A DNA stretch of 64,000 bases from an uncultured Candidatus Poseidoniales archaeon (GCA_905182635.1 CAJJCM010000026.1:3568-67567), one strand, 5' to 3'; positions 13,871 to 62,016 are shown, counted from the stretch's first letter. The notes: generated from the letters alone by a model not told the origin. Program-made: numbers and translations.

Positions 13871-13892
13871 ACGCCCACCGGTTATTGAAACA

Positions 13893-38900: not shown

Positions 38901-41900
38901 TGCCAAGTATCGAATTTCATGGTCACGCTCAATGAGATCACCTGGGGCGCCGTTGTAATCTTGAACGGAATAATATCCTTCAAGGTTAATCAAGTCGTCA
39001 TACATGTCAATAATTTGCCCGTCATCAAGACTGAGTGTTAATAATTGAACGGTCAAAGAGAGACGGGTATTCGCACGATGGATGTTGGTCGCGACTGAAT
39101 CATATTCTACAATAAGGTCTGCAGTGTACCAGTATTCTCCAACTATGTAATGGGTAGTCTCATAGACATTGTCAGCACCTGTGCGGATGTTGTTTGTGAA
39201 AGTACGGTTCGCTTCGGACTGTTCAGACCAGTCTCCATCGACACATGTTGCCGACTGGGCCTCGGTACAGAGCATACGTTCTCCACCTTCGTAAATCCGC
39301 CAGTATTGAGTCGATGCGTCAAACACGCCATCGGTTTGATGGTGGCCGACTGCCAGCACGACATCGTCATTCGTTTGGAACGCTTCGAAACTGTTCAATT
39401 TAGCCAAAGTAATCATTTCGTCATGGTTATAATTGGTAGAAATGGTAGAAAAGAGGTCCATTTGGTCATCGGTGAGGTACGAATCAACGATGTTGCTGTA
39501 ACCTGAAGTGAAAGCGGTGTTATCAGTTCGAGCCTGATTGTATCCGATGTCGCCTTGGCCAAGTTGCCAGATGAACATCGAAACGAGGTCTTCTTGGCTG
39601 CGCGCCAGCAACATGTTACCGGTCGCAGGAATACCAGATTGGAAGTTATCGGAAACGGATGGGTGTTCACCCGTATCAAGTGCTTGGAATCCGTAGTCCC
39701 ACCAAGAAACGAAAGCTGGGCGCTGTGAATATGTCTCATCGGCATCTTGGGCAGCAAGCCATTGATATGCCTTGTTCCAACCTTGGTCATTGAATCCAGA
39801 ACCGAACGAGCCGAGATACCAGTTTCCATCATAACCGCTGTCGTCAAGAAGCGAAAATCCACCGACTTCCCAGCGGAATGCATCAGGGATAATGTTGTAA
39901 ATCACTTCATCAAGATCATCTTCAGCATTGTTGCTGCCAGGGATAGCAGCGTCAAGACCGTAGGTAAATTGCTGTCCCATGAGCATGACCATCACAAGCA
40001 TGATTGCAGAGAATGATGGTGTGCGCCATACTGCAATTCGAGCACCACGAATACGATCTTCAGGAGAACGGATTCCCAGTTTCTTCCAAGTCTTCACAAG
40101 GCCGTCCCAGTTTGCCCACTTCCATAGAGATACGATACCCCATGCGCCGAGAACGGCGATTGCAGGTGTGGCATTGAACATGAAACGAGCCGCTGTCCAA
40201 GCCATGAAAGAGGCTGCAAGAATCCAAACGCCGAACACGAGTTTTGTTTGTTTACGTTCACGAACAGCAGACCAAAGACAGAGGACGCCCATAATCAATG
40301 AGAGCACAAAGGTAATCGGTCCGAACTGAGCAAAGAGTTGGCCACGGTCTGGAGCGTTTGCTTCAGCAACTGTTCCGAAAATCTTAGTTTTGGTGAAATA
40401 GCCACTACCGGTAAACAAAACGTCCCATGCATTCGAGATGTTCGCTTGCTTGAGGAGCCACAATGCCAAGAAGAAAACAGCACCAGCACTGGCAAGAACG
40501 CCCAAGATAAGCAACCAAGGCTTGTCTCGGAATCCGGTTGTTACAAAGCTAATTGCCAAAGTAAACGCGAAGATGAACAAGAACGGTTGCAGACCTGTGC
40601 CATTGAGGATAAGGTTAATTTGAGGATGTCCGTAGAACGGAATTGCCATCAAGAAATTGACTGAAAGCATGGTCATGAATAAGACATTGAGTGTGGTTGA
40701 GTCACGGCGGCGGAACATGTTGAGAGCAACTTGTCCTGCATATGCAAGGAAGAGAATCGATGGTCCAACAACGAAACCTTTCCAACCAAGAGAAACAATA
40801 CCGAAACTGACACCTGCCAAAACTGCGGCGGCGAAAGCGGCTTTCCGTTGATTGATAACCGCTGAAATTGAAGCAACGAAAGCCATCGGTGTCGCTGAAG
40901 AAGTACGAATCAATCGCTCTGTTCCAGCATACTTAACCGCTCGCAACCAAAACATAAACCCGAGCGTGATGAACAGCATGATGAAAGCATCGTGGTCTGC
41001 AAGAGCCCATGTTGTGTGGCTCACGTGTGCAGGCATAAAGGCGAGAAGCCATGCTGCGATTACTGCTGCTTTTACACCGACGTGTTCGCGTGCAATAATA
41101 GCAACTGGCAAAATGGTAAGAGCGCCGTAGATAGCAGGGAGGGAAAGGATTGCCCACCAAACTGCATCGCCATTCGCAAAGAACGGTTCAAGCAACATTG
41201 CAACGACTGCAATCGACCATGTGAAAATCGGAGGTCGAGGGTTGATTCCACCGACGGGGTAGAAACGGTCAGCATCAACAATCATGTGAGCATTATTGGC
41301 AAGAATATAGTCAACAACTCGCTTCATGTACCATGGGTCAGAACCACCGGTCATGTCCCAGTTCCCAGTTCCGTATGCATTCATTGATGGCACAACATAC
41401 CATTGTGTGCGAATGACCAGACCAAAGAAGAAAGCAAGTCCAATCATGACGCCTGCCCAATGCTGATTCCAGAATAAACGAGCACCTGAATATTCATGCT
41501 CTTCACGGTTCACCCATCCGCCCCATGAATCATGGGTGGAAATTGAATAAATGGCCACGCCGATAAAGAAGGTGATTCCGAGCCAGATCAAACTGCCCCA
41601 GTTTCCGTTCAACATGTCCACAGAGAACATGCCTGAATCATACCATGATGAAACCAAATACAAAGTCCACATTGATCCGAGAGTCATTGCACGGGTATGC
41701 CAGCGCTCGGAGAACATCCCTGCGACAATCAGTGCAACCATACCGGTGAAGAAGGCTGGCCAGTAGCCAAAGTAGCCATGGTAGCCCTCAACGGTATTGA
41801 TTCCGAGTTGGTCGGCAACCGAGACACTGTCGAAATGCCAGAGACTTGCAATGTGAGCAAAAGACCAGACGGCAAGAGCAATTTGCAAGGGTAAGTTTTT

Positions 41901-44884: not shown

Positions 44885-46588
44885 ATGCGAACCGCCCTAT
44901 CCTTGACATTTCTCTTGATTGTCACCACATTAAGTACACTTGCTGGAGTTCATGCTGAAGTTCCAAGCGACGGTACAACTGTCATCATCAGTGCGGATGA
45001 AACATGGAATGGAACGAATACCATGAATGGAAACCTCATTGTGGAAAGCGGTGCAACATTGACGATTGAAGGTGATGTCACACTTGCAACGGGCAATTCA
45101 ATCACCGTCGAAGAAGGTGGAGCACTCATGCTGACCGGTGCGCTGCTTGGAGACCAATTGGATTCAGGACTTGCAATAATGAACGACACCCAATTACACA
45201 TGAATTTTGGAGATTTAGCAGAGTCAGGACAATTGAGAATCGATTTCAACCAAGTGATTCCTGAATCGGCCATGTTCAACGTGACCATTGGTGAACAAAC
45301 AAGTGATGCTGCAGGTTCAGACCACATTTTCATTGATGTATCACTTAATGGTAGTGATTTGCTCGCTGACTTTTACACATACTATGCATTTGAGATACAG
45401 GTCGTTTCTGTCCAAGCCCTACATTCGGGTAGCGGTGAAGCGGCAATCCTCTTGGCGAGTGAACTCAATCAGACCGGTGGAAGTTTAATTTGGAACAGTG
45501 CTTCATTTGCGCTCGACGTTCAAGGAACGTTGCACTTAGATGGAGCTACTTTGTATGGGGCTGAACTCACCTGTTCCGGCGTATGCGAGATGCATTCGAG
45601 CACCTTGATTGGTAGCGCCCCCATCAATGTCGATGACGGCACAAGTATCGTTGTCAACTCCAGTTCTATTCTCGGCAGTCGTACCGATGAAGACATTATT
45701 GTCCATGACCTTGCTGAGATCACCTACACCGATAATCAAGGAACCGGTGGCGTAACAGATGGATGGATTCGACTGTTGTCTCAACGACAAATTCAAACCA
45801 ATGCAGGAAACATAACGGTTCACCAAACTGGAATTGGGTATGGGGGTTCCACTCGTGACGATTTTACAAACTCAAATGGATTGATTGACATTGGAGGAAG
45901 TGAATGGCAACGAATCGTGGAATGGGTTGACCAGAACGGCGTCTATCATTCAGAAGACGCTGAACTTGTATTCACACTCAGCACTGGATGGGGTGACTTT
46001 TCTACGACTGTCGCTGCACCTCAAACACCAACTGCGATTATTGACGTACCCTTACCTTACATCGAAATCGTTTCAATCGATGCTGAAGACACAACCGCTG
46101 AAGTGGATAAGAAAATAGGTGCTATGATAACGGTCCGAAATACTGGCAATGCAACTGCTACTGTCAACATCTGGTGCTATGTTGATGAGAACCTTACTGA
46201 AACGACTGCCCTCACAACGACACTTACCCCTGGTGAAGAAAAGAAACTCCCTGTCTCTTGGTGGGCCAATACTGACGGGCCTCAAATTCTCAACTGCCGT
46301 ACGCTTATCCCTAATATTTTGAAAGCGATTGCAGAGGATGTCACCAACGTCGAGGGTGGAAACTCCCAAGAAGTCGGTTGGTATATTGGCGAAGAGACTG
46401 AAGACCAACCATTCATTGTCTATGGTATTCTCGTCGTCCTCATCGTCATTGGAAGTGCTTTGTTTGCACGAAAAGCAGGTGAGAAGATCTCAACGATAGA
46501 GTTCAATGAACCCTTGGAAGAGGAAGAACAAGAAGTGACTGAAGATAGAAAAGAAGTCGAAGAAACGAACGAAGATGACGAAGTTTGA
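44885..46588 (+). CDS. Secreted type-I membrane protein (567 aa) with a signal peptide, a C-terminal transmembrane anchor and an acidic cytoplasmic tail
   Basis: Signal peptide MRTALSLTFLLIVTTLSTLAGVHA. Transmembrane segment PFIVYGILVVLIVIGSALFA. Tail rich in Glu/Asp (EEEEQEVTEDRKEVEETNEDDEV). Confidence 0.6.
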   Translation: MRTALSLTFLLIVTTLSTLAGVHAEVPSDGTTVIISADETWNGTNTMNGNLIVESGATLTIEGDVTLATGNSITVEEGGALMLTGALLGDQLDSGLAIMNDTQLHMNFGDLAESGQLRIDFNQVIPESAMFNVTIGEQTSDAAGSDHIFIDVSLNGSDLLADFYTYYAFEIQVVSVQALHSGSGEAAILLASELNQTGGSLIWNSASFALDVQGTLHLDGATLYGAELTCSGVCEMHSSTLIGSAPINVDDGTSIVVNSSSILGSRTDEDIIVHDLAEITYTDNQGTGGVTDGWIRLLSQRQIQTNAGNITVHQTGIGYGGSTRDDFTNSNGLIDIGGSEWQRIVEWVDQNGVYHSEDAELVFTLSTGWGDFSTTVAAPQTPTAIIDVPLPYIEIVSIDAEDTTAEVDKKIGAMITVRNTGNATATVNIWCYVDENLTETTALTTTLTPGEEKKLPVSWWANTDGPQILNCRTLIPNILKAIAEDVTNVEGGNSQEVGWYIGEETEDQPFIVYGILVVLIVIGSALFARKAGEKISTIEFNEPLEEEEQEVTEDRKEVEETNEDDEV

Positions 46589-48866: not shown

Positions 48867-48965
48867 AGAGGTTTCACCTATTAGTCAACCCCAGCAATGA
48901 GACCCTCATAACCGTTACGCCAAGATGGTTCCAAAAATAGCCTACGCTGACCTCAAATGATTAAG

Positions 48966-49039
48966 TGGGCCCGAAGGGACTTGAACCCTTGACCCCCCGG
49001 TTATGAGCCGGGTGCTCCAACCAACTAAGCTACGGGCCC
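48966..49039 (-). tRNA. tRNA-Met (anticodon CAT; elongator-type G1-C72 acceptor; could alternatively be a CAU tRNA-Ile2)
   Basis: Reverse complement GGGCCCGTAGCTTAGTTGGTTGGAGCACCCGGCTCATAACCGGGGGGTCAAGGGTTCAAGTCCCTTCGGGCCCA. 7-bp acceptor stem, anticodon loop CUCAUAA, T-arm GGGTTCAAGTCCC. No encoded CCA. Confidence 0.85.
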
Positions 49040-50475: not shown

Positions 50476-52257
50476 ATGCCTAAGCACGGGGGGTATGTGA
50501 ACACCAACATGGCAGATCCTCTGAAGGACATTATGCTAAAAATAACGGATGATAATCCTGCGACTCGTGGGCAAAAATTGTGGGTTATGTTTGCACTTTC
50601 TCTCTTCTTAGTTGCCACTTTGAATTGGTATGCAATGGTTCGAGAACCTCAAGTTGTCGAGATTGACGATTTAATTCAGCACAAAAATGAAGTTGTATTA
50701 GTCGAAGGAAAAGTCATTTCGTGGATTGAAGACCGATATGGCAATGGGGAAGACCGAGTCGATTTAGTTATTGAAGATGATACTGGCGTCATACAAGTAC
50801 GTTGGTTTTCAACCGGAACGATCCCTCCAATCGGTACCAATGTTACGGTGATGGGTGATGTTGTCGATTATAATGGCAGATTTTACATGCAAGCAACTGG
50901 TTCAGGTGCGTTGGATTGGGAGCCAGAAGATTTACCTGTTCTCGAACGAGTTTCTCTTTCAGATCTTGCCGTAGCTCCCGAAACCTACGTAGGGGAGATT
51001 TTGACTGTGACCGGATACATCAGTGAAGCTGTAAATCCAGATGCAACATTTACCTCTGCTTACCTCACAGATGCCTCGCACCAAATGCAACTCCTTGTTC
51101 AATCTGCTACAGGAGTTTGGATTGAATCCGATTCTAAAATTGAAGTGACTGGTATGCTCGCTTACCAAGAAATGAGTTTGCGATGGGCACTGATGACTCA
51201 AGGTCCGACCATCCTCGTCGTCACAAGCTATTCACCTCCAATCAATAATCTCGAATGGTCGGGTGAATCCACATGGAGTTACGAATCAGGAAGCATGGTC
51301 TCTATGGCAGGTACCGTATTGATTTCTAACGGCCAATGGACGCTGTCTGGGCCAAACGGCAACGTGATGTGTATTCTCCCAACCGATGAAGACATCACAA
51401 GCGCTGCTACGCAGGGTTACAACGGCTCTACTTACGAAGCCTCAGGCCGCTTAATGTGGAATGACGTTCGCAGCATGTGGTGTATTGATGCCAACAATGG
51501 TAATGGCACCAATCTCATTGACCCAATGTCCGCAATGTCGATGCAAGCCATGCTCTCCGCTAGCCCGGCATCAATGTTGCAAACACCTAGCAAACAATAC
51601 ACGCTCAGCACATTCATGCAATACTCCTTCGAACCACTCGATACGGAAGGCTATTTTGTTGATAGTCAGGGCTACACCTTTGGACAAACACGTGTGGCCA
51701 TGTCGTTCCCTTCAACACGAACCGAATGGATCGAAGCTGGTCAGGGCATCATTGCCAACGTCACTGTATCGTGGGACGACGAAAAAATGATGATGCGAAT
51801 CATGGTTGACACCTACCAGTTGGTTGGAAACCCTCCGGAACCTCAGACCATACTTTGGGACGCTGGAGCAACCCAATGGGGCTATACCAAGAACCAGTTA
51901 GTGTTAATCGATGGAAAAGCAGCCCTCCATGATGATGGCTGGTATCTCGAACGCCCAGGTTCAGAACAATCCATCAAACTAAATGTCCGACTCAATGCAA
52001 TTGGTACTGATACGTTGCACGAAAATCAATCCCTTACATGGAATGGAAGACTACGGCAAATCGAACATCCCAGTGATTTGGCTCTGGTCTTTTCTCTTGA
52101 TAATGCAGATGCTTTGGATGAGGATGGCGACCGTCTGGCAGATAGTTTTGAAGATGCCACCGGCTTCAATTCAAACACCATCGATTCGGATGGGGATGGA
52201 ATCAATGACCGCGAAGAAATGGAGAATGGAACCGGTCCAAACAACCAAAACTCCTGA
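50476..52257 (+). CDS. N-terminally anchored extracytoplasmic protein (593 aa) with a C-terminal TSP3-like calcium-binding repeat
   Basis: Single N-terminal transmembrane segment LWVMFALSLFLVATLNWYAMV. C-terminus DEDGDRLADSFEDATGFNSNTIDSDGDGINDREE. Confidence 0.5.
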   Translation: MPKHGGYVNTNMADPLKDIMLKITDDNPATRGQKLWVMFALSLFLVATLNWYAMVREPQVVEIDDLIQHKNEVVLVEGKVISWIEDRYGNGEDRVDLVIEDDTGVIQVRWFSTGTIPPIGTNVTVMGDVVDYNGRFYMQATGSGALDWEPEDLPVLERVSLSDLAVAPETYVGEILTVTGYISEAVNPDATFTSAYLTDASHQMQLLVQSATGVWIESDSKIEVTGMLAYQEMSLRWALMTQGPTILVVTSYSPPINNLEWSGESTWSYESGSMVSMAGTVLISNGQWTLSGPNGNVMCILPTDEDITSAATQGYNGSTYEASGRLMWNDVRSMWCIDANNGNGTNLIDPMSAMSMQAMLSASPASMLQTPSKQYTLSTFMQYSFEPLDTEGYFVDSQGYTFGQTRVAMSFPSTRTEWIEAGQGIIANVTVSWDDEKMMMRIMVDTYQLVGNPPEPQTILWDAGATQWGYTKNQLVLIDGKAALHDDGWYLERPGSEQSIKLNVRLNAIGTDTLHENQSLTWNGRLRQIEHPSDLALVFSLDNADALDEDGDRLADSFEDATGFNSNTIDSDGDGINDREEMENGTGPNNQNS

Positions 52258-52266
52258 GGTATTCAC

Positions 52267-53778
52267 ATGCTTGAGGCCTATTTATATGAATTGAGTTGGA
52301 TGTTAGCAGCCTTGTTCATGGGTGTTGCAATGGGGACACTTACTGGAATCATTCCAGGTTTTCACGTCAACAATGTCGCACTGATTTTACTTGCTTTAGC
52401 ACCTGCATTGTTAAGTTTAGGAATTCCTCTTTCGGCAGTGGCTGGCATCATTGTTTCAACGGGAACAGTACATACATTTCTCAATTACATACCTTCGGCC
52501 TTGATGGGTGCGCCGGATGCTGACCAAGCGTTGTCACTCTTACCCGGTCACAGGATGTTACTCTCTGGAAATGCTGCACGTGGAGTTGCTTGGTCAGCTC
52601 GAGGCTCACAACTCGGTTTGTTCCTTTCACTCCCACTGATTATTGTGGCTCGTATTGCCTTTGGTCCCGAATTGGGCTGGTATACTCAATTACGTGCCTT
52701 TTTACCATTCATTTTACTGACGATTTCATTATTATTATTGGCGACTGAAACCACACGTCTCGATTGGCCAAAATGGTTGAAAATGGTAACGCGCGGAAAA
52801 CTCGGTAACGATTCTCGATTGGCAGGTTTCTTTTCCGCAACAGCCTTTTTCTTGCTCACCGGACTGTTTGGCTGGACCATCCTTGGCCCGCATTCACTCC
52901 CAGCACGTTCACCACTTGACATGCCTGGAGCGAGTCTTTTACTTCCGAGTTTAGCCGGATTATTTGGTATAGCCAATCTCCTCGATATTTATGCAACAAC
53001 ATCCCATCTTCCTCCACAGAAAGAAAACTGGGATTTGCCTCCTGTTAAGCCATTATTGGTTCCATGCTTTTGGTCAGGCGTCGCAGGAGCATCGATGGGT
53101 GTCCTCCCTGGAATGACGGCATCTCAAGCGACTGTCCTTGTCATGGGTGGACGAAACGTCGCTGCTAAAATGCAAGGCAAACAAGGCTTTGGAATGGATT
53201 GGGAAACTCGGCGACTCACTGAATTAACCGATGACGAATTACTCGAAATTGCAAAAGCCGAATCCGAAGAGGGCGTCGAAGGACCTCAAACGAAGCAAGA
53301 TTTGGAAATTATTGCGATTCTATCAGCGGTGAACACTGCTGTTACAGTATGTGTCCTTGGATTCCTCTACATCATCGGCCGTTCACGATCTGGTGCAACC
53401 TTGGCACTCAAAGCGATGTACCCTGTCGACACGTGGAGTAGTCTTGAACCAACTGCGGATTTCATTCGTTTGCTAGCCATCACTCTTGCTGCTGGCCTCA
53501 TGGCTATGCCCATTATGCGATTCGTCGGAAAAGGTATGTTGCGACTTCACGCAGCAATTCCATTACAACAGATGATTATGAGTGTCATTGTTTTCGTCGC
53601 TGCTCTGGTGTTCGTCAGTACTGGTTTCATCGGATTAGCAGTCCTCATTGTCGGAACCATGCTGGGGCTCTTACCTCCTCGATTAGGTATTCGCCGTAGT
53701 CACGCAATGGGTGTTATTTTAGTACCAATTACGTATCTCTTATTCGAGAACTTGGTCGATAACGCAGGATTCCTTTGA
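52267..53778 (+). CDS. Polytopic membrane protein resembling the TctA family (DUF112) of tripartite tricarboxylate transporter large subunits
   Basis: 503 aa, at least 10 transmembrane helices. N-terminal G-x3-G-x2-PG motif (GTLTGIIPGF). Gly/Ala/Pro-rich repeats typical of TctA. Confidence 0.55.
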   Translation: MLEAYLYELSWMLAALFMGVAMGTLTGIIPGFHVNNVALILLALAPALLSLGIPLSAVAGIIVSTGTVHTFLNYIPSALMGAPDADQALSLLPGHRMLLSGNAARGVAWSARGSQLGLFLSLPLIIVARIAFGPELGWYTQLRAFLPFILLTISLLLLATETTRLDWPKWLKMVTRGKLGNDSRLAGFFSATAFFLLTGLFGWTILGPHSLPARSPLDMPGASLLLPSLAGLFGIANLLDIYATTSHLPPQKENWDLPPVKPLLVPCFWSGVAGASMGVLPGMTASQATVLVMGGRNVAAKMQGKQGFGMDWETRRLTELTDDELLEIAKAESEEGVEGPQTKQDLEIIAILSAVNTAVTVCVLGFLYIIGRSRSGATLALKAMYPVDTWSSLEPTADFIRLLAITLAAGLMAMPIMRFVGKGMLRLHAAIPLQQMIMSVIVFVAALVFVSTGFIGLAVLIVGTMLGLLPPRLGIRRSHAMGVILVPITYLLFENLVDNAGFL

Positions 53779-53858: not shown

Positions 53859-56800
53859 ATGAATGCCGTCGTTCGCTCCCTCTGCCTCGCAACCCTCATG
53901 GTGATTTCAATAATTGCCCCCTTTGGTATTTCATCTCTTGAAGAGGTACCTGATGTGCCTGCAACTTCCAGTCGTTCACTGGCTTGTACAGGTGATATCT
54001 GCCTTAACGAAGCACTTCCAAATCCAAACGGCTACGATAATGCAAGTTGGTCAGGTGGCGAATGGATGGAGATTCATAACTCGGGAAACACAACCGTTGA
54101 TGTTCGAGATTGGTATTTAACCAATAAGGCTTCCAAAACTCTGTACTTCAATTCGACCTCGATTGTTGATTACGATACTATGGATTCTACCAGTTGGGAA
54201 ATTGAACCGGATGAATACATGGTCATCGCTCGAAATGGATTGCCAAGCTCGATTTTTTATCTGGCGAATACAAATGACATCATCTCGTTGTTCAATTCTT
54301 CCGGTGTTCAACTTGACCAAGCGACATGGACCTTTTCATCCTCTGCTCCTTCAGGCTCAAGCCTTGAAGAAGACAGTTTCAGTGCAACTGGTGACTGGGT
54401 TGCTACAAACGGTCCAACACCTGGCGCCATCAACTCTGGAGGCTCAACGGGTGGCCCAACTGTATACCCTTCTGATCTTGTCATCAATGAAGTCATGTCC
54501 AACCCTTGGCCTTCTTTCGATAACGCAACATGGCCAGGAGGCGAATGGGTTGAAATCTTCAACTCCGGAATGACCGCTATGAACTTGACAGGATGGTCCC
54601 TTCAAGATACTGCAGGCAATATTCTTGCCTTTGACGAAAACCATCTCGTCGGATATACGAACGATTCCAATTCGACCATCATCGCTCCGGGTGATACAAG
54701 AATCATTGCCGTTAACGGTTCTGGGAATTCTGGTGTATTGAACAATGGTGTCGAAACATTATCCTTGTTTTGGCCAAATGGAACCAAAGCACAACAAATC
54801 TCTTGGACTGATACTGAAGCTGGATTCGCACTTGTCGAGAGTTCATCATCCCAATACTGGACCTATGCTGCCTACCCAACTCCAAATGCAAGTAACCCTC
54901 TTGATTTTTCTATAATTGCCTCTACTCCCTCACCAATTGAATTTGCTGAATTATTATCAAACAGCAGTTCAGATGGTTCTACTTTCCCAGATGGGGAGTG
55001 GATTGAATTGCTCAATACTGGAAACACAACGGTGGATTTGTCAGGTTGGTCAGTCATTGATGGAATGGGTAATGTCACGTATCTAGACCCTGGTTCACTT
55101 GTCTTCAACCAAACTCAAGGTGCTACTTCAATTGATGCTGAAGAGCGACGACTGATTCAATTTAATGCTGATACTGAACTATGGGATTATTACAATCAAC
55201 TCATGCTTCGTGATTCAACTGGATTGATTGTTGATTCTGCTTGGTATACAACTGATTACGGTGAAAACATTTCGCTGATTCCTGCGGAAATGGATGCAGA
55301 CCCATGGGTCCCATCAACCTGGATGACACCCGGTCAACCAGACCCTGGTGAAACACCTTCAACAGGCCTCGCGATTTTCACCGAAGTATTTCCGGATGCT
55401 GTTGGCAATGATAATCAACAATGGCCCCTTGGAGAATGGCTTGAAATATACAACAATGGGACCGCTGCGCTTGACGTAGGTGGGTGGAAATTACAGTCCT
55501 CCAATAGTCGTTCACTGACTCTGCATCAATTCAACATGCCGCTCCAAGCAACCTCGATTATTCAACCGGGAGATGTCGCATTAATTGCTTTGAATGGTAC
55601 CACAAGTTTTTACCTAAAACACACGACTCCAGACTCTATTATCTTGATTGATGGAAACGGGAACATGGTTGATTCTATCTCTTGGGTTTCTACGACTGAA
55701 GGTGAATCTTTGATTGCTCCAAACAGCACGCACGCAGGTGCTGGACCTCTTGGAACAGGTGCATCAAACGGCAGTGATTGGATTCAATCCGCTTGGGCAA
55801 CTCCAGGCGAGGGGAATCCAGTTTGGCCAATGTATGCAGGCACCCATGACCTGGTTCTCACTGAAATTTTGGCGTATTGCAATGATGATTCAATCGACCC
55901 ACTGGAAGATTGGGTCGAAGTCATGAACGTTGGCACTCTTGATCTCAATTTGAGCCGATGGAGAGTTGATTCAAGTGATGGAGACCGACGCTTTTTCAGA
56001 ACAACTTCAATGTGGAATCAAACTGATGATTCGATGCTCCTCGCCCCACAAGAGCGCGCTGTCCTGCTGATGGAAAACAATGTAATTTCAGGTTTAGGAG
56101 ACCAATTACAACTCTCGGATCCTGATGGGAATTCGGTTCAAATGGCACAATGGAACATCGTCAGTGATTGCCAAACGATGGGGCCTGGCGAGACTGAACT
56201 CGACGGTTGGGAATTACTCCTTTGGCCAACTCCTGGCTACGAAGAGCCAGATGCGACCCTTTTTGCTGAGGCACAAGATATTGTCTTCAGCCGCTTTATG
56301 CCCGAAGGTTCAACCTCCATTTCAAGTAATACAGAATTCATTGAAATTACGAACATCGGTGATAGCCTTGCTTACATGGAGGGATGGACCTTCACACTCA
56401 TCAATTCAGCAAATGAAGCCACGGATTATTCCTTTGGTGAAGTCGCGATTCCTTCCAACGGTTCGGTGATTCTTGCTTCAGACCCAAGCGGTCTTTCTGT
56501 CTACGAAGATGGCACAATCATTGGATTTGATTCTGCCATGTCCATCTCGGGATTGACACTTCCTGATTCAGGGGCTGCTCTTCAGATATCAACGCCTTCG
56601 GGTGTCCTTGCAGATACAGTGGTCTACGGTAACGGTCCAGTTGAATCCGCAGGTTGGAGTGGTATTAGTTTGGTCGAACCTGTCACCAGTCTTTCTCTTC
56701 TTGTTTATCATCGCGGCGATGGATGTGGCAATTTACCAGATACTGATGTCGCCTTGGATTGGCAACATCGTTGGGGACGTTTAGGTGCAAGCACCTTCTG

Positions 56801-58775
56801 TGGTCCAACACTGTTCTCAGGCATAAGTACCATCACGCCATTGATTGGTCCTCAAGAAGGCCTCGTTGACTTGGTCGCCTGGATTGACAATGCTACTGAA
56901 TCGTTACATGTTCACCTTTATCAGATCGAACAGCCAAATTTGGTTCAAGCACTCATTGAAGCACATAACCGAGGTGTTGATGTTACCGTAGTTCTTAACG
57001 CTGCGGAATACTGGTGGAATAATTACGATAAGAACAACCAACTCGGCACGGCAAACATACTTGCAACTGCTGGAATCAATACGTTCTGGTTTGGTGGACA
57101 AAATGATGACCCTTATTCCTATATTCACAGCAAAGTAGCCGTAAAAGACAATGGAAGTGTATGGATTGGTTCAGGTAATTGGAAGAGTTCCTCACAACCT
57201 GCACCTGGTGAACGCGGAAACTCTGAATGGGGAGTCTTAATCGATAACGCAGACCTTGCTCAAAAGGTCATGAATCAACTTGCCTATGATGAATCTTCGA
57301 GTCGCACCTACATCACACAAGTCTACCCAGGTTCAGCACCATCCGATTGGTCGATGGATGCACTCAAACCCCTTGTCAATGGAACGATGGCGGAACCGAT
57401 TACAACCAATGTGTCTGGCCGTCTCATCACGTGCCCAGACACTTGTATTGACGGCTTGGTCTGGATGATTGAACAAGCAGATGAAGAAATTCTATTGTCG
57501 TTGCAATATCTCGATGTGGATTGGAGCTGGGGTTGGGGAGAGAATCCAATTGTCACCGCTTTGGAAAACGCTGCACAAAGTGGCATTCGTATTCGTTTGA
57601 TTTTGAACGGTGCTTATCTCGATAAGGATATTCAAGATGTCGTTGATACCTTCAATGAAGAATGGAACTCGACCCTTGGATACGACATCAATGCGATCAT
57701 CATGAGTGAAGATGATGAAGTTTCGAAATTGCATAACAAGGGTGTTATTGTTGATGCTGAGCACGTACTGATTTCATCAATTAATTGGGGTGATTCTGCC
57801 ACAACACGGAACCGTGAAATGGGCCTCATTCTCAGTAGCGCAGAAGTCACTGCTCCTTTCCTTGCTGGATGGTATCGGGATTGGGTCCGTACTGACAATG
57901 TGACGGATACCGATAACGATGGTCTGCCGGATTATTGGGAAGTGGCCAATGGACTCAACCGTACAACACGCACTCTTGCCATGCTCAATATTCTTGAGGG
58001 AGCGTATGATGCGGATGGAGATGGATTACTGAATGAAGTGGAATACATTTTCGGTAGTCATGCAACCAATCCTGATACCGATGGAGATTGTATTCCAGAT
58101 GCAATCGAAGTTTCGTGGGCACAAGCAACTGCTCAAGATTCTACGATTCCTGATGTCTCTCCAACCGCAGCATTGACACTTGCTGATGCTGATGGCGATG
58201 GTGTCAATGAATCAGAACTTCTTGGCTGTGACCTTGGTGGAATTCTGACTGATGGAAATCAAACTCTCATTGACAACAGCACATTAGATGATGACGCTGA
58301 TATGGTCATCAATCGGGATGACATCTGCCCGAATACCGGTGCAAATATTCCAGTTAACGTCGATGGTTGCTCGACTGAACAGAGAAATGCTAATGCTGCA
58401 CCGAGTGCCGATACAAGTTCTAATTTCGCCTCTGGAATGATGCTTACGTTCATGCTTGCAGGAATCGGATTGGCTGCTGGAGCATTCCTCATCTTGAGGA
58501 ACATCGAAACTGAGGGTGAAGAAATCAAGGATTTGATTACCATCGAGAGTGAAAACCTCGACGCACTTGCTGAAACGAATATTGATGCTGACAATTGGAA
58601 TATGCCGGTTCTTGACGGGAGTGGAGAAGCACCAATGCCTTCGGGACTTTCATCCGAAGATCTCGCACGTTGTCCAGGGTGGCCAGAAGCAACGATTCAA
58701 TCCTATCTTGACCAGGGATGGTCGATTGACCAACTGGCGGAGTACTATCAAGAACAGGTCAATGAACACGCTTGA
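53859..58775 (+). CDS. Giant (1638 aa) surface-anchored protein with six lamin-tail-like domains, a phospholipase-D / Nuc-type two-HKD domain, TSP3 repeats, a C-terminal transmembrane anchor and a Trp-containing tail
   Basis: Signal peptide MNAVVRSLCLATLMVISIIAPFGISS. Six LTD-like repeats (for example LVINEVMSNPWPSF...GEWVEIFNSGMTAMNLTGWSLQD). HKD motifs YIHSKVAVKDNGSVWIGSGNW (about 57122-57180) and LHNKGVIVDAEHVLISSINWG (about 57729-57790). DTDNDGLPDYWE and DTDGDCIPDAIE loops. Transmembrane segment MMLTFMLAGIGLAAGAFLIL. Tail ends CPGWPEATIQSYLDQGWSIDQLAEYYQEQVNEHA. Confidence 0.8.
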   Translation: MNAVVRSLCLATLMVISIIAPFGISSLEEVPDVPATSSRSLACTGDICLNEALPNPNGYDNASWSGGEWMEIHNSGNTTVDVRDWYLTNKASKTLYFNSTSIVDYDTMDSTSWEIEPDEYMVIARNGLPSSIFYLANTNDIISLFNSSGVQLDQATWTFSSSAPSGSSLEEDSFSATGDWVATNGPTPGAINSGGSTGGPTVYPSDLVINEVMSNPWPSFDNATWPGGEWVEIFNSGMTAMNLTGWSLQDTAGNILAFDENHLVGYTNDSNSTIIAPGDTRIIAVNGSGNSGVLNNGVETLSLFWPNGTKAQQISWTDTEAGFALVESSSSQYWTYAAYPTPNASNPLDFSIIASTPSPIEFAELLSNSSSDGSTFPDGEWIELLNTGNTTVDLSGWSVIDGMGNVTYLDPGSLVFNQTQGATSIDAEERRLIQFNADTELWDYYNQLMLRDSTGLIVDSAWYTTDYGENISLIPAEMDADPWVPSTWMTPGQPDPGETPSTGLAIFTEVFPDAVGNDNQQWPLGEWLEIYNNGTAALDVGGWKLQSSNSRSLTLHQFNMPLQATSIIQPGDVALIALNGTTSFYLKHTTPDSIILIDGNGNMVDSISWVSTTEGESLIAPNSTHAGAGPLGTGASNGSDWIQSAWATPGEGNPVWPMYAGTHDLVLTEILAYCNDDSIDPLEDWVEVMNVGTLDLNLSRWRVDSSDGDRRFFRTTSMWNQTDDSMLLAPQERAVLLMENNVISGLGDQLQLSDPDGNSVQMAQWNIVSDCQTMGPGETELDGWELLLWPTPGYEEPDATLFAEAQDIVFSRFMPEGSTSISSNTEFIEITNIGDSLAYMEGWTFTLINSANEATDYSFGEVAIPSNGSVILASDPSGLSVYEDGTIIGFDSAMSISGLTLPDSGAALQISTPSGVLADTVVYGNGPVESAGWSGISLVEPVTSLSLLVYHRGDGCGNLPDTDVALDWQHRWGRLGASTFCGPTLFSGISTITPLIGPQEGLVDLVAWIDNATESLHVHLYQIEQPNLVQALIEAHNRGVDVTVVLNAAEYWWNNYDKNNQLGTANILATAGINTFWFGGQNDDPYSYIHSKVAVKDNGSVWIGSGNWKSSSQPAPGERGNSEWGVLIDNADLAQKVMNQLAYDESSSRTYITQVYPGSAPSDWSMDALKPLVNGTMAEPITTNVSGRLITCPDTCIDGLVWMIEQADEEILLSLQYLDVDWSWGWGENPIVTALENAAQSGIRIRLILNGAYLDKDIQDVVDTFNEEWNSTLGYDINAIIMSEDDEVSKLHNKGVIVDAEHVLISSINWGDSATTRNREMGLILSSAEVTAPFLAGWYRDWVRTDNVTDTDNDGLPDYWEVANGLNRTTRTLAMLNILEGAYDADGDGLLNEVEYIFGSHATNPDTDGDCIPDAIEVSWAQATAQDSTIPDVSPTAALTLADADGDGVNESELLGCDLGGILTDGNQTLIDNSTLDDDADMVINRDDICPNTGANIPVNVDGCSTEQRNANAAPSADTSSNFASGMMLTFMLAGIGLAAGAFLILRNIETEGEEIKDLITIESENLDALAETNIDADNWNMPVLDGSGEAPMPSGLSSEDLARCPGWPEATIQSYLDQGWSIDQLAEYYQEQVNEHA

Positions 58776-59572
58776 ACATCACAAGATTGACAAAGGACCT
58801 CGATGTCCAAAGATTGATTGCTATGGCCTACAACACAAGTAACCCTGTTCTTTCAAACAAGTTTTGGAGTAATATCGAAGGACATGAGTCCATGTCCTAT
58901 GAAGGGACAATGCAAAAAATTGGCATCATGTTCGGCACCACGGTCTTGTTTGCCGCATTAACTGCTTATGCTGCAATTGCGATTAACATGAATCTCGCCA
59001 TGGCCGCAATGATTATCGGTGGGATTACCGGTTTCATCCTTGTTCTCATTCTGGTTTTTTCTCGACCAAAGAATCCAGTGCCGTTAATGCTCTCCTATGC
59101 TGTATTCGAGGGCCTTTTTGTTGGAGGAGTTTCCCTGATCTTCGAACAGATGTATTCTGGAATTGTATTCCAAGCAGCAGTTGGAACAATGTGCATTGTT
59201 GGCGCCATGTATGGGCTGTATGCGACTCGGATTATCAAAGCCACTCCGATGTTTCAAAAGGTAGTCATGAGCCTCGTAATGGGTATTATGTTGTTGTATG
59301 TGGTCTCGTTTATCCTTTCCTTCATCCCAGGCTCTTTTCAAGTTCCATTCCTTCATTCATCAGGACCAATCGGAATTCTACTCACATTGTTTATTCTTGG
59401 TGTGGCTTCCTTGTGTTTAATTCTCGATTTTAATTTCATTGAAACTGGAATTCAACAACAAACACCGAAAGTGGGTGAATGGTGGGGGGCCTTTGGACTC
59501 CTTGTAACAGTCATTTGGATTTATATCGAAATGCTACGACTTCTCTCGAAAGTGCGTAGTAATCTCGACTGA
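58772..59572 (+). CDS. Bax-inhibitor-1 / YccA (TMBIM) family membrane protein. The start is uncertain: the ORF track uses TTG, and the true start may be an internal ATG up to about 58910.
   Basis: Seven predicted transmembrane helices. C-terminal EWWGAFGLLVTVIWIYIEMLRLL resembles the BI-1 family C-terminal signature. Confidence 0.6.
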   Translation: MNITRLTKDLDVQRLIAMAYNTSNPVLSNKFWSNIEGHESMSYEGTMQKIGIMFGTTVLFAALTAYAAIAINMNLAMAAMIIGGITGFILVLILVFSRPKNPVPLMLSYAVFEGLFVGGVSLIFEQMYSGIVFQAAVGTMCIVGAMYGLYATRIIKATPMFQKVVMSLVMGIMLLYVVSFILSFIPGSFQVPFLHSSGPIGILLTLFILGVASLCLILDFNFIETGIQQQTPKVGEWWGAFGLLVTVIWIYIEMLRLLSKVRSNLD

Positions 59573-59582
59573 TGAAGGTGGA

Positions 59583-60542
59583 ATGATGCGAAGCATCCCT
59601 GTCATAGACTTCTCGGATTACACCAGCGGTGACCTTCAACGACAACAGACATTCATACAAGCAGTGGGTGACTCCCTCAAGGAAATCGGATTCTTTGCAT
59701 TAAAGAACCATGAGATTCCTTTGAAAGCAATCGAACAAGCATATGAACAAGGGGATGCTTTTTTCTCGCTTCGTCAAGTTACCAAGAACGCCTACCTTCA
59801 ACCTCAAATTGACCATCAACGTGGCTATACCGCTTTTGGAATTGAGCATGCCAAGAACAACCCTGCACCCGATTTGAAGGAGTTTTGGCAAAGTGGGCGT
59901 AGCCATCCAACCACGGGTGAAAAGCCGACCTATGTAGCAAATGTATGGCCTGAGCAAGATGTTCCTGAATTCAAACCAGTCATTGAGGGATTATTTGCAC
60001 GGATGGAAGCAGTATCGCAAAGTCTCTTGCATTCATGCAGCCTTTATCTTGGAAAAGAAGAAAATTGGCTCAGTTCAATGGCAGCAGATGGCAATACCAT
60101 CATGCGAATCATTCACTATCCTCCACTTGGTGAAGAAGTACCTGAAGGTGCAGTCCGTTCAGCAGCCCATGAAGATATCAATTTCATCACCTTACTGGTT
60201 ACTGCGACAGCAGATGGTCTTGAAGTGAAGGACAATGATGGAAGTTGGATTAAGGTCAAAGGCGATGCAAGCCACATCATTGTCGACTCTGGAGATATGC
60301 TACAGAATCTTACCAATGGATTATTCAAATCGACAACGCATCGTGTCGTAAATCCGAGTAACTCGAATGCTCGGCGATTTTCAATGCCGATGTTTGTCCA
60401 TCCACGTAATGATATCGATTTGACACCACGAGAGGAGTTTATTCGGCTCACTGGGGGAGTATCGTTGTTTCAATCGATTACTGCAGGTCAATATCTCCAT
60501 CAGCGTTTGGTCGAAATAGGTCTTACAGAAGACGGTGTGTGA
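59583..60542 (+). CDS. 2-oxoglutarate/Fe(II)-dependent dioxygenase (isopenicillin-N-synthase-like family)
   Basis: N-terminal DIOX_N-like region (IPVIDFSDY). Facial triad H-x-D...H (HEDINFITLL...THRVVNP). RxS 2OG-binding motif (RFSMPMF). Confidence 0.85.
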   Translation: MMRSIPVIDFSDYTSGDLQRQQTFIQAVGDSLKEIGFFALKNHEIPLKAIEQAYEQGDAFFSLRQVTKNAYLQPQIDHQRGYTAFGIEHAKNNPAPDLKEFWQSGRSHPTTGEKPTYVANVWPEQDVPEFKPVIEGLFARMEAVSQSLLHSCSLYLGKEENWLSSMAADGNTIMRIIHYPPLGEEVPEGAVRSAAHEDINFITLLVTATADGLEVKDNDGSWIKVKGDASHIIVDSGDMLQNLTNGLFKSTTHRVVNPSNSNARRFSMPMFVHPRNDIDLTPREEFIRLTGGVSLFQSITAGQYLHQRLVEIGLTEDGV

Positions 60543-61869
60543 GCCAATGGGTGAAGACCTCATTGAACGCTTATGTGCTTCGATTCAGTTGAAGGAATCA
60601 ATGGTGATGGCGGATTTGACGATGTTCATTGATGGTGTTGCCCAACGCCAATTTCAAGTTGAAGACATTGAAAAATGGCTTCGGTGTGTCCATACCAATG
60701 GTATTTCAGTTGATGATACAACTGCACTCACGCGTGGTATGATGAATTCAGGTGCTGTATTAGAATGGCAGGGACTGACCAATGTTGCAGACAAACACAG
60801 CACTGGAGGAGTTGGTGATAAGATGTCATTGATTCTCGCTCCGGCTCTTGCTGCATGTGGTCTTCGAGTTCCAATGTTAGCAGGTAGAGGATTAGGTCAC
60901 ACTGGAGGCACGATTGACAAGCTCGAATCGATTCCTGGTTTCAATTGCAATCTCACCCCCTACCAGATGCAAGAAGCCGTTGAAAAAGTTGGGTGTTGTA
61001 TCGCAGCCCAAAACGATGCGATTGCGCCTGCTGATGGCTTACTCTATGCGATACGTGATGTCACAAATACCGTCGATAGCATCCCTCTCATTACGGCTTC
61101 TATCATTTCGAAAAAAGCGGCAGAAGGATTGAATGCACTTGTGCTTGATGTCAAATGCGGTCGTGCTGCCTTCATGAAAACTGAGCACGACGCCCTTGCT
61201 TTAGCCGAATCAATGGTCAGTGCAGCCAAGGGCTTAGGAATCAATACGGTTGCTCAAATTACGGATATGAATGAACCGATTGGCACTCATATTGGTAATG
61301 CACTCGAAGTCCTTGGTAGTGTTCACGTGCTTCAGGGAAAGGGCTCCGCTGATACACGAAACTTAGTCGCCCTCCAAGGTGGACAATTACTTGCACTTAC
61401 TGGAATATCTCCATCTCTAGAGCAGGGTATCCAGATGATTTTGGAAGTACTGGATAACGGCGAAGCATTACGTTTCTTTGTCGAGATGTGTGTACAACAA
61501 GGAACAGAGCGAAAGATGGCTGAACTACTTGTAAACGAGCCGGAGCATGTTCTTCCGAAGTCAAAGCATGTGACTTCGGTTGTAGCTGCCGAATCGGGAT
61601 ACGTTCAATCGATCGATGCAATGGCACTGGCCGAAGTGGCAAGAGAACTTGGTGCTGGTCGGTTTTCCATGGAAGATTCAATCAATCATGGGGTTGGCTA
61701 CGTCATTGAAGCCACAAGAAATATGACTCTTTCCAAAAACCAGCCTTGGATTTCGATTCACCATGACCATCCGCTTAGCTCTCAGCACCTCACTCAAATC
61801 GGAGATGCCTTGCAAATTGGAAATGTACCAACGGCAGAGTTTCAACGACTCATCCGCATCATACACTAG
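60535..61869 (+). CDS. deoA: Thymidine / pyrimidine-nucleoside phosphorylase (bacterial DeoA-like)
   Basis: DKHSTGGVGDK phosphate-binding motif. GRGLGHTGGTIDKLESIPGF and TVDSIPLITASIISKKAAEG, nearly collinear with E. coli thymidine phosphorylase. 8-nt overlap with the upstream dioxygenase gene. Confidence 0.9.
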   Translation: MCEPMGEDLIERLCASIQLKESMVMADLTMFIDGVAQRQFQVEDIEKWLRCVHTNGISVDDTTALTRGMMNSGAVLEWQGLTNVADKHSTGGVGDKMSLILAPALAACGLRVPMLAGRGLGHTGGTIDKLESIPGFNCNLTPYQMQEAVEKVGCCIAAQNDAIAPADGLLYAIRDVTNTVDSIPLITASIISKKAAEGLNALVLDVKCGRAAFMKTEHDALALAESMVSAAKGLGINTVAQITDMNEPIGTHIGNALEVLGSVHVLQGKGSADTRNLVALQGGQLLALTGISPSLEQGIQMILEVLDNGEALRFFVEMCVQQGTERKMAELLVNEPEHVLPKSKHVTSVVAAESGYVQSIDAMALAEVARELGAGRFSMEDSINHGVGYVIEATRNMTLSKNQPWISIHHDHPLSSQHLTQIGDALQIGNVPTAEFQRLIRIIH

Positions 61870-61916
61870 CCGAGTGAATAGAAGTCGTCATAAAGGGGAG
61901 GCTATTCGCCCAAGTT

Positions 61917-61989
61917 GCCGATTTAGCTTAGCTGGTGGAGCGTGGGACTGTTAATCCCAAGGTCGAGGGTTCGAACCCCTCAATCGGCG
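61917..61989 (+). tRNA. tRNA-Asn (anticodon GTT)
   Basis: GCCGATTTAGCTTAGCTGGTGGAGCGTGGGACTGTTAATCCCAAGGTCGAGGGTTCGAACCCCTCAATCGGCG. 7-bp acceptor stem, anticodon loop CUGUUAA, T-arm GAGGGTTCGAACCCCTC. No encoded CCA. Confidence 0.85.
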
Positions 61990-62016
61990 TTTACTCAAGA
62001 ATGTTGTACTGAAGGC

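Follow-up and report, generated by a model that had tools for sequence, protein, structure and literature searches.

The protein described here is encoded at positions 53859-58775 (plus strand) of a 64,000-nucleotide stretch of DNA, called the window in the following, from an uncultured Candidatus Poseidoniales archaeon (GCA_905182635.1, CAJJCM010000026.1:3568-67567) of the Poseidoniaceae (Marine Group II (MGII), MGIIa). It combines six lamin-tail domains (LTD) with a catalytic unit carrying two HKD motifs, and is termed the LTD-PLD protein. On motif, fold and conservation it is a member of the phospholipase D (PLD, HKD) superfamily. All residues required for PLD-type catalysis are invariant, so that the unit is predicted to be catalytically competent, and an extracellular phosphodiesterase would be the most likely function. 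The best explanation appears to be a surface ecto-enzyme which cleaves extracellular nucleic acid for scavenging, a reading to which we give about an even chance. The combination of LTD and PLD is already visible in the databases as a large family, labelled only generically or wrongly. The Poseidoniales protein is an elaborated member of this family, having six LTDs, a TSP3 stalk, a transmembrane (TM) helix and a conserved tail.

The catalytic unit and its predicted substrate

Within the whole protein, Pfam identified two stretches of PLDc_2 (PF13091, E 4.4e-36), and a strict search for the pattern H.K....D......[GS][GS].N gave exactly two matches, at amino acids (aa) 1090 and 1292. HKD motif 1, HSKVAVKDNGSVWIGSGN (aa 1090-1107, 57126-57179; like all parts of the gene, on the plus strand), belongs to the first PLDc_2 half, half A (aa 1006-1141, 56874-57281; 70.6 bits, E 1.5e-19). 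HKD motif 2, HNKGVIVDAEHVLISSIN (aa 1292-1309, 57732-57785), belongs to half B (aa 1203-1337, 57465-57869; 64 bits, E 1.6e-17). Throughout 23 orthologues, down to 46% identity, H1090, K1092, D1097, S1105 and N1107 of motif 1 are invariant. The same 23 orthologues share H1292, K1294, D1299, S1306, S1307 and N1309 of motif 2 as well as the RNRE that follows at aa 1317-1320. The His, Lys, Asp and Asn of the motifs are also invariant in two sets of distant relatives (n=66 and n=57).

In a sequence search, half A matches the nuclease Nuc (1byr, E 2.3e-8) and half B Zucchini/MitoPLD (4ggj, E 1.4e-6). An AlphaFold2 model of aa 798-1345, comprising LTD6, the linker and the PLD unit, was calculated from an alignment with 39 orthologues. 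It reached a mean predicted local distance difference test score (pLDDT) of 89.1 and a predicted template modelling score (pTM) of 0.82, and in it a nine-strand sandwich precedes two alpha/beta lobes. A Foldseek comparison with the PDB gave 154 matches at E<=0.001, and the best 50 of these 154 are all PLD-superfamily structures. At the top stand the 5'-exonucleases PLD3/PLD4 and SpPLD (7e0m) with E values of about 1e-19 to 1e-18, followed by poxvirus F13, phosphatidylserine synthase and the Streptomyces and human PLDs (1e-17 to 1e-16).

An initial annotation of the window, made from the sequence alone, had placed both HKD motifs behind the LTDs and a PLD fold at aa ~1050-1260. The order is correct, both motifs lie inside the confidently predicted bilobed fold, and the catalytic His and Lys, whose conservation that annotation had named as a condition, proved invariant in close and distant homologues. 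The extent of the fold had been drawn too narrowly, since the unit spans ~aa 1001-1345 with half A at 1001-1165 and half B at 1166-1345.

For the substrate, the sequence relationships lean toward nucleic acid. The window sequence alone matches Nuc (2e-8), Zucchini (1e-6) and NucT (6e-6), compared to 0.0095 for PLD2. A profile of 57 distant relatives searched against the PDB found 7e0m (5e-25), NucT (6e-21), Zucchini (3e-18), Nuc (1e-16) and PLD3 (7e-16), and with the same profile phosphatidylserine synthase (1e-8), Streptomyces PLD (1e-6) and PLD1 (9e-4). By sequence, the module is nearer to Nuc, NucT and Zucchini, and further from lipid PLDs and synthases. In NCBIfam, the models of DrmC and NucT score highest, all of them below their cut-offs, and the cardiolipin synthase models reach 14-17 bits. 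Furthermore, a serine is present in both G/S-S-x-N motifs of the PLD unit, which has been described as a nuclease feature (PMC8004604). The depositors of 7e0m noted that it has loops resembling those of nucleases and that a positive loop is ill-suited to acyl chains, and asked whether their enzyme is a nuclease (PMC8004604).

The LTDs point in the same direction, as prokaryotic LTDs accompany extracellular nucleases and phosphoesterases such as ExeM, Hvo_1477, haloarchaeal ComA and an Izemoplasma nuclease, and ExeM degrades DNA more slowly in vitro once its LTD is deleted (PMC6085458, PMC5118699, PMC8289736). Catalysis close to the membrane behind a long array would suit a threadable polymer better than the bilayer of another cell. 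The gene context was also counted for a nuclease: a TM- and OB-like protein, a permease and a thymidine phosphorylase occur in the cluster, and a dNTPase-like HD protein, PurD, GuaA and PurE flank it. Taken together, the hedged prediction of the initial annotation, a nuclease or a phospholipase, holds, and nucleic acid rather than lipid or another compound is put forward as the substrate with the odds roughly balanced.

Mechanistically, one HKD histidine would attack the phosphodiester, resulting in a covalent phospho-histidine intermediate, and the other would protonate the leaving group and then activate water. Following the established mechanism of the PLD superfamily, this catalytic step would be metal-free. 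The substrate would be extracellular DNA or RNA, probably single-stranded or cation-screened. Here, the catalytic unit would sit ~175 residues from the membrane and the six LTDs beyond it may form a distal capture array for polymeric or particle-bound substrate. Products released at the cell surface could then be dephosphorylated and taken up, and imported nucleosides would feed salvage, for example via the thymidine phosphorylase encoded three genes downstream. The role would be the scavenging of nucleotides, phosphorus and nitrogen from dissolved or particle-bound nucleic acids.

Several observations weigh against a nuclease. The PLD unit contains 14-20 Lys and Arg versus 41-57 Asp and Glu in every orthologue, and its nine invariant basic residues (K1092, K/R1096, K1109, R1246, K1290, K1294, R1317, R1319 and R1344) lie almost all beside the HKD motifs. 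Judged from sequence composition, this makes a long electropositive groove unlikely, and an elongated positive groove characterizes the Nuc/NucT endonuclease subfamily (PMC5714352). The LTDs are also poor in Lys and Arg, with 1-6 basic residues per domain, and therefore simple electrostatic DNA binding is unlikely unless it is bridged by Ca or Mg; conceivably, cation bridging in seawater could offset the acidic surface. On the structural level, the Foldseek gap between nucleases and lipid PLDs is just 2-3 orders of magnitude. A canonical DNA-binding domain (HhH, SNase or an in-chain OB fold) was found in none of the 84 relatives scanned, and the partner domains of the relatives are LTD, PKD, CARDB, Big, cohesin/dockerin and NosD/beta-helix, of which PKD, CARDB and cohesin/dockerin exemplify generic surface modules. 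The function of the LTD-PLD family is a prediction from sequence and models.

Points from the gene context also count against a nuclease. A 593-aa protein encoded two genes upstream gave sub-threshold OB/DUF4131 matches and a poor AlphaFold2 model (pLDDT 56, pTM 0.34). The synteny described below is seen within one archaeal family only, in which gene order is generally conserved; since all genomes come from this family, it may reflect general collinearity. No common gene context was present for the distant relatives encoded in Tumebacillus avium and in a Methanomicrobia metagenome-assembled genome (MAG), whose neighbours are unrelated. Due to the acidic surface and the lack of a canonical DNA-binding domain, readings as a lipase or as an enzyme acting on other phosphodiesters stay alive.

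The first of these is a surface PLD acting on foreign ester phospholipids of algal or bacterial membranes, vesicles or detritus, which could serve nutrition by releasing phosphatidic acid or head groups, or could harm cells nearby; the ether lipids of the archaeon itself would be poorly suited as a substrate. Lipid use is generally assumed for MGII archaea, and lipid PLDs share the two-HKD single-chain fold, being strong structural matches (E 1e-17 to 1e-16). The 'PLD active site motif' PF00614 matches half B (24.7 bits), and a small positive pocket in an acidic surface would fit a singly charged phosphodiester head group. However, the profile likeness to genuine lipid PLDs falls more than 10 orders of magnitude below that to the nuclease-like clade, and the module is compact (~345 aa). 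Moreover, a membrane-proximal unit behind six LTDs is awkwardly placed to reach the bilayer of another cell, and the conserved cluster contains no lipase or fatty-acid genes. This reading is thus regarded as rather unlikely.

The position of the PLD unit, tethered near the cell's own membrane, would also fit a phosphodiesterase or transphosphatidylase directed at the envelope of the archaeon itself or at other phosphodiester polymers. It might, for example, remodel head groups of outer-leaflet archaeal lipids, catalyse a cardiolipin-synthase-like reaction, turn over phosphoglycans or polymers resembling teichoic acid, or act on glycerophosphodiesters. In line with this, phosphatidylserine synthase is a detectable relative (E 1e-8), the gene is a fixed, single-copy and syntenic core gene as expected for envelope housekeeping, and several databases name relatives 'cardiolipin synthase'. 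The latter name was assigned automatically and is not based on any experiment. Assignment to the cardiolipin synthases ClsA/ClsB was rejected, as the protein scores 14.4 bits with TIGR04265 (cut-off 290) and 16.8 bits with NF008427 (cut-off 281) and its PLD unit is predicted to be extracellular. By established biochemistry, CDP-activated donors are inaccessible to an extracellular site, and a distal array of six LTDs has no obvious role in remodelling the own membrane. A function on the own envelope or on other phosphodiesters is considered improbable.

Domain layout and surface topology

The gene is the single long open reading frame (ORF) in the region and encodes 1638 aa (isoelectric point (pI) 4.05, K+R 3.1%). 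A GGTGA Shine-Dalgarno-like box lies 5 nt 5' of the ATG, and the N-terminus aligns with the orthologues in a 23-sequence alignment. It starts with a signal peptide or hydrophobic leader (aa 1-28, 53859-53942; Kyte-Doolittle window >1.6), which is preceded by R6 and conserved in orthologues.

With the whole protein, Pfam reported six stretches of LTD (PF00932, 237 bits, E 2.7e-71). For the individual domains, the protein was cut into ten pieces, each of which was scanned alone. LTD1 (core aa 44-158, 53988-54332; 50.9 bits, E 2.2e-13), LTD2 (aa 204-317, 54468-54809; 62.9 bits, E 4.2e-17), LTD3 (aa 355-463, 54921-55247; 44.6 bits, E 2e-11) and LTD4 (aa 501-610, 55359-55688; 58.6 bits, E 9.1e-16) are clearly above the cut-off of 34.3 bits. 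The divergent LTD5 (aa 662-765, 55842-56153) and LTD6 (aa 805-924, 56271-56630) each score 34.2 bits (E 3.5e-8). The LTD1 unit reaches ~aa 203, and the units of LTD1-5 comprise 143-161 aa each and close in a W..TPG..N motif. Mutual identities of the six domains are 22-40%, and they are therefore not recent duplicates. In the LTD5 region, Cys674 and Cys771 are invariant among the 23 orthologues. LTD6 corresponds to the LTD found directly before the PLD unit across the wider family, as judged from the consensus of distant relatives, and is modelled as a nine-strand beta-sandwich with pLDDT values mostly of 83-95. A solved structure was not detectable for the LTDs by sequence search.

Between LTD6 and the PLD unit lies a conserved linker (aa 925-1000, 56631-56858) with the pattern GW.G...R.GDGCG..DTD...DW..RWGRLG.STFC, of which Cys956 and Cys981 are invariant in the orthologue alignment. 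The PLD unit is followed by an Asp-rich stalk (aa 1346-1520), within which an acidic, putatively Ca-binding region of five TSP3-type loops (57894-58418; net charge -32) was identified. Scanned as a single piece, it matches TSP3_bac (PF18884) with 34.7 bits against a cut-off of 25. Three DxDxDG loops were found by pattern search at aa 1350, 1384 and 1443, and two further, looser Asp-rich loops by eye at aa 1406 and 1477. In the orthologue alignment, the Asp columns and two Cys pairs of the stalk are invariant. A single TM helix (aa 1526-1548, 58434-58502; hydropathy up to 2.25) leads to a predicted cytoplasmic, acidic tail of 90 aa (aa 1549-1638, 58503-58772).

Within the tail, the final 61 residues are conserved (PVLDGS...DLARxPGWxExMIQxYLDQGWTxDQLAEYYQEQV), with W1608, Y1616, G1620, W1621, L1626, Y1629 and Y1630 invariant in the 23 orthologues. 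This conserved part has no family match in Pfam and is present in 77 of 80 species loci. It (58590-58772, plus strand) holds two elements resembling GW-x4-[IL]-x2-Y, PGWPEATIQSYL and GWSIDQLAEYY. Elsewhere in the window, a surface protein of 1816 aa (ORF 8420-13870) without any Pfam match ends after its TM helix in LPQGWTLDQWSHFGWQY (8420-8500, minus strand). A tail module common to the other giant surface proteins of the window was considered and discarded: a short GW(T/S)xDQ likeness occurs in ORF 8420-13870 alone and is not significant (E 0.71).

These features support a predicted type I membrane-anchored surface protein, probably N-glycosylated and disulfide-bonded. The ectodomain contains 12 invariant cysteines in six sequence-adjacent pairs and 33 N-x-S/T sequons, compared to 18.5 +/- 3.7 in 2000 shuffles, and the tail contains none. 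The protein is acidic and poor in Lys and Arg, like the other predicted surface proteins of the window and in contrast to its cytoplasmic enzymes. Due to the Cys pairs, the sequon excess and this composition, the region from the leader to the TM helix is placed outside the cell. The signal peptide and the C-terminal TM helix make the PLD unit extracellular, and with this arrangement the catalytic unit would be membrane-proximal and the LTD array distal. The order of signal, LTD, PLD and C-terminal TM helix is found in almost all relatives. For the overall architecture, the initial annotation was accurate: the ORF and its motif descriptions are correct, the LTD repeats placed at 53.98-56.7 kb score as LTD, with six PF00932 cores at 53988-56630, and the proposed TSP3 Ca-loops and surface anchor are both recovered. 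It contained neither the conserved tail behind the TM helix nor the archaeal origin of the DNA, the status as a syntenic core gene or the existing large LTD-PLD family.

Given that two thirds of the chain are non-catalytic beta-sandwich and Ca-binding repeats, the protein might be mainly an adhesin or structural protein, in which the LTD array and TSP3 loops attach particles or cells and the PLD unit serves as a binding module. MGII papers mention surface adhesion proteins, including thrombospondin genes, and take genes with thrombospondin repeats as adhesion factors (PMC6461757). In addition, other giant acidic surface proteins are encoded in the same window. Nevertheless, all catalytic residues of both HKD motifs are invariant in orthologues as well as in relatives of ~30% identity, which would not be expected of non-catalytic PLD folds such as FAM83 or TrmB-type domains, and we consider a mainly adhesive role very improbable.

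The giant and mid-size proteins in question are encoded at 8420-19646, 27096-31529 and 44885-46588 and possess a leader and/or C-terminal TM helices. Their K/R content is 3.4-5.7% and their pI 4.05-4.3, compared to a pI of 4.9-7.7 for the cytoplasmic enzymes of the window; such uniformly acidic surface proteins suggest that the exoproteome of this archaeon is systematically acidic. In a further ORF of 3204 aa (32979-42593, minus strand), the N-terminal domain of an STT3/AglB oligosaccharyltransferase (aa 416-678, 46.9 bits) is combined with CarboxypepD_reg/SdrD-like beta-sandwiches over a very long region and with a TM helix at the C-terminus. The product would be an unusually large oligosaccharyltransferase fusion, which is relevant to the many sequons seen in the surface proteins. 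Among the surface-protein genes, an 841-aa protein with AAA_16 ATPase and TPR, resembling STAND/MalT-like regulators, is also encoded (24511-27036, minus strand).

Gene cluster, distribution and significance

The LTD-PLD gene is part of a tight co-directional run coding for a TM- and OB-like protein, TctA, the LTD-PLD protein, BaxI, a 2-oxoglutarate-Fe(II) oxygenase and thymidine phosphorylase. The first gene (50476-52257, plus strand, as are the following; likely true start M12 at 50509) encodes the 593-aa acidic protein, which is anchored by an N-terminal TM helix and consists of several small, OB-like beta-barrels and a C-terminal TSP3 repeat. Among its orthologues, sub-threshold Pfam matches were found to DUF4131 (15 of 27), which is the N-terminal OB fold of ComEC (PMC5031224), and to the OB fold PF01336 (13 of 27). 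Sequence and profile searches of the 593-aa protein against the PDB gave no match, and its OB/ComEC-N identity is to be taken as a lead. Its gene is syntenic in 68 of 80 loci, each miss being a truncated contig.

The second gene codes for a TctA-family permease (52267-53778; PF01970, 150 bits) and starts 9 nt after the first; the LTD-PLD gene follows after 80 nt. Downstream lies the gene of a Bax-inhibitor-1-like membrane protein (58772-59572; PF12811, 223 bits) with an ambiguous start, either TTG at 58772, which overlaps the stop codon of the LTD-PLD gene, or ATG at 58823, so that the spacing is -4 to +47 nt. The run ends with a bacterial-type thymidine/pyrimidine-nucleoside phosphorylase (60535-61869; NF004490, 429 bits, cut-off 269). 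It is flanked by genes for a dNTPase-like HD protein and for PurD, GuaA-C and PurE. A tRNA-Met(CAT) at 48965-49039 (minus strand) and a tRNA-Asn(GTT) at 61916-61990 (plus strand) also flank the conserved cluster.

The gene order is kept in orthologous loci at 47-53% identity. For the species scan, one genome per GTDB species was used; 285 genomes encode a relative, and the best 80 of the 285 were examined as loci. All of these best 80 with enough flank keep the order, as every 'missing' neighbour is explained by a truncated contig. The whole cluster might form a surface system for the capture, degradation and import of extracellular nucleic acid, in which a TM-anchored OB-fold protein outside the cell, similar to ComEC-N/DUF4131, would act together with a TctA-type permease, the LTD-PLD enzyme, a BI-1-like channel and thymidine phosphorylase. 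This wider proposal is offered as speculative and is considered doubtful.

In the databases, one entry is 100% identical to the protein, and the full-length orthologues (1615-1654 aa, 47-86% identity) number more than 120; where named, they come from Poseidoniaceae, Poseidoniales or 'Euryarchaeota' MAGs. The best 80 of 285 species loci, which include the original MG-II assembly CM001443.1, carry Poseidoniales-type labels with one exception. This contig (CAXQWT010000029.1), labelled as a Salipiger bermudensis MAG, has a Poseidoniales-type LTD-PLD gene (54% identity) together with the downstream genes for BaxI, 2-oxoglutarate oxygenase and thymidine phosphorylase, and is probably mis-binned. The LTD-PLD gene is a fixed, syntenic, single-copy core gene of the Poseidoniaceae lineage.

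For the wider family, an exhaustive HMMER search with the PLD unit yielded 3453 clusters of 50% identity with E<=1e-3, compared to 985 with E<=1e-10. Most relatives of ~30% identity are laid out as signal, LTD, two-HKD unit and C-terminal TM helix and keep the linker motif GWxG...R...DTxxxxDW...G.S.F between LTD and PLD unit. The TM helix is found at a matching relative position in nearly all relatives, and an LTD in 40 of 57 distant and 26 of 27 nearer ones. Some relatives (P0138-P0149, 1150-2300 aa) contain two complete PLD units, up to 4-5 HxKx4D matches and several LTDs. Named members belong to Methanophagales/ANME-1, Syntrophoarchaeum, Argoarchaeum, Methanosarcinales, Thermoplasmata and Asgard archaea, and a few Firmicutes (Tumebacillus, Paenibacillus, Croceifilum) carry LTD-PLD-LTD. 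Their names are generic ('PLD-like domain-containing', 'lamin tail domain-containing') or the automatic 'cardiolipin synthase'. The UniRef name 'Competence protein ComEA' of a Tumebacillus relative was dismissed, as no ComEA/HhH domain stands behind it. No literature was found on the combination of LTD and PLD, on any member of the family, or on an LTD-PLD protein in MGII papers.

Among the archaea in surface ocean waters, MGII is the most abundant group, and its ecology has been deduced for the most part from surface and secreted proteins. Dissolved DNA and RNA represent a major marine pool of phosphorus and nitrogen. If the substrate is nucleic acid, the protein would provide a concrete route for Poseidoniales archaea to this pool; if it is phospholipid, the protein would give them access to the membrane lipids of algae or bacteria. 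A function established here would be the first for ~1000 clusters of 50% identity (E<1e-10) in ANME, Asgard archaea, Thermoplasmata and some Firmicutes, and the PLD fold would join the few phosphoesterase folds that are known to occur together with LTDs in prokaryotes. Should the reading of the whole cluster be true, it would represent the first candidate apparatus for scavenging of extracellular DNA (eDNA) and RNA or for DNA uptake in these archaea. Such a system would use a metal-independent PLD-fold nuclease with a six-LTD 'fishing line', compared to the EEP, SNase and metallo-beta-lactamase nucleases of bacteria and haloarchaea. The protein is a good candidate for the use of eDNA or phospholipids by uncultured marine archaea, which would not surprise a specialist.

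Comparison with known systems

The closest structural relatives are PLD3 and PLD4, mammalian lysosomal 5'-3' exonucleases of single-stranded DNA and RNA, which are the best Foldseek matches (E ~4e-19, TM-score normalized to the target 0.6-0.67). Like the LTD-PLD protein, they are single-chain, two-HKD, bilobed pseudo-dimers and are membrane-anchored, N-glycosylated and extracytoplasmic, in their case luminal. In contrast, identity is 13-18%, their anchor is an N-terminal type II TM helix instead of a C-terminal one, and they have no LTD array, TSP3 stalk or conserved tail. Both act in the endolysosomes of eukaryotes and work best at acidic pH.

SpPLD from Serratia plymuthica (7e0m) is the best match of the profile in the PDB (E 5e-25) and the second-best in Foldseek. 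It is a compact single chain of 391 aa with two HKD motifs and nuclease-like loops, and unlike the LTD-PLD protein it has no LTD, TSP3 or TM helix. Since its substrate was left undecided in the structure paper (PMC8004604), the likeness does not settle the function of the LTD-PLD protein. Within NCBIfam, DrmC of the DISARM system matches best (86.3 bits, E 2e-24) and has PLDc_2-type halves. However, DrmC is cytoplasmic and encoded in an operon with drmA, drmB and a methylase, whereas the LTD-PLD protein is predicted to be extracellular and no defence genes are nearby. Membership in the DrmC family (NF038319) was rejected due to a cut-off of 133 bits and to the neighbours, which are housekeeping and transport genes.

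The sequence-closest characterized enzymes are Nuc of pKM101, NucT of H. pylori and Zucchini, whose catalytic step requires no metal and is insensitive to EDTA. In the periplasm, NucT is membrane-associated (PMC5714352). According to a title cited in PMC5714352, it is associated with the outer membrane and serves purine salvage from extracellular host-cell DNA, which is the same role as proposed for the LTD-PLD enzyme. These enzymes are single-HKD subunits of 155-200 aa that dimerize, whereas the LTD-PLD protein has both halves in one chain. They are also basic with an elongated positive groove, in contrast to a net charge of about -28 to -41 for the LTD-PLD module. The NucT equivalogs (NF010490-NF010493) were not accepted for the LTD-PLD protein, which scores 34-51 bits against cut-offs of 211-351, for instance 51 bits where 297 are required.

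With respect to the LTDs, the comparison is with ExeM from Shewanella, Hvo_1477 from Haloferax and haloarchaeal ComA/Hlac_1867, which are secreted or membrane-tethered phosphoesterases with an N-terminal LTD. This group has been implicated in the degradation or use of eDNA (PMC6085458, PMC5118699). The ExeM-type nuclease model (NF033680; LTD, OB, EEP and GlyGly-CTERM) was excluded, with 14.3 bits against 1300 and no EEP domain. ExeM itself is likewise associated with the cell envelope and has a C-terminal hydrophobic region. The catalytic domains of the group are EEP, SNase (thermonuclease) or metallo-beta-lactamase and metal-dependent, whereas the LTD-PLD protein has a PLD fold, and their single LTD contrasts with the six of the Poseidoniales protein.

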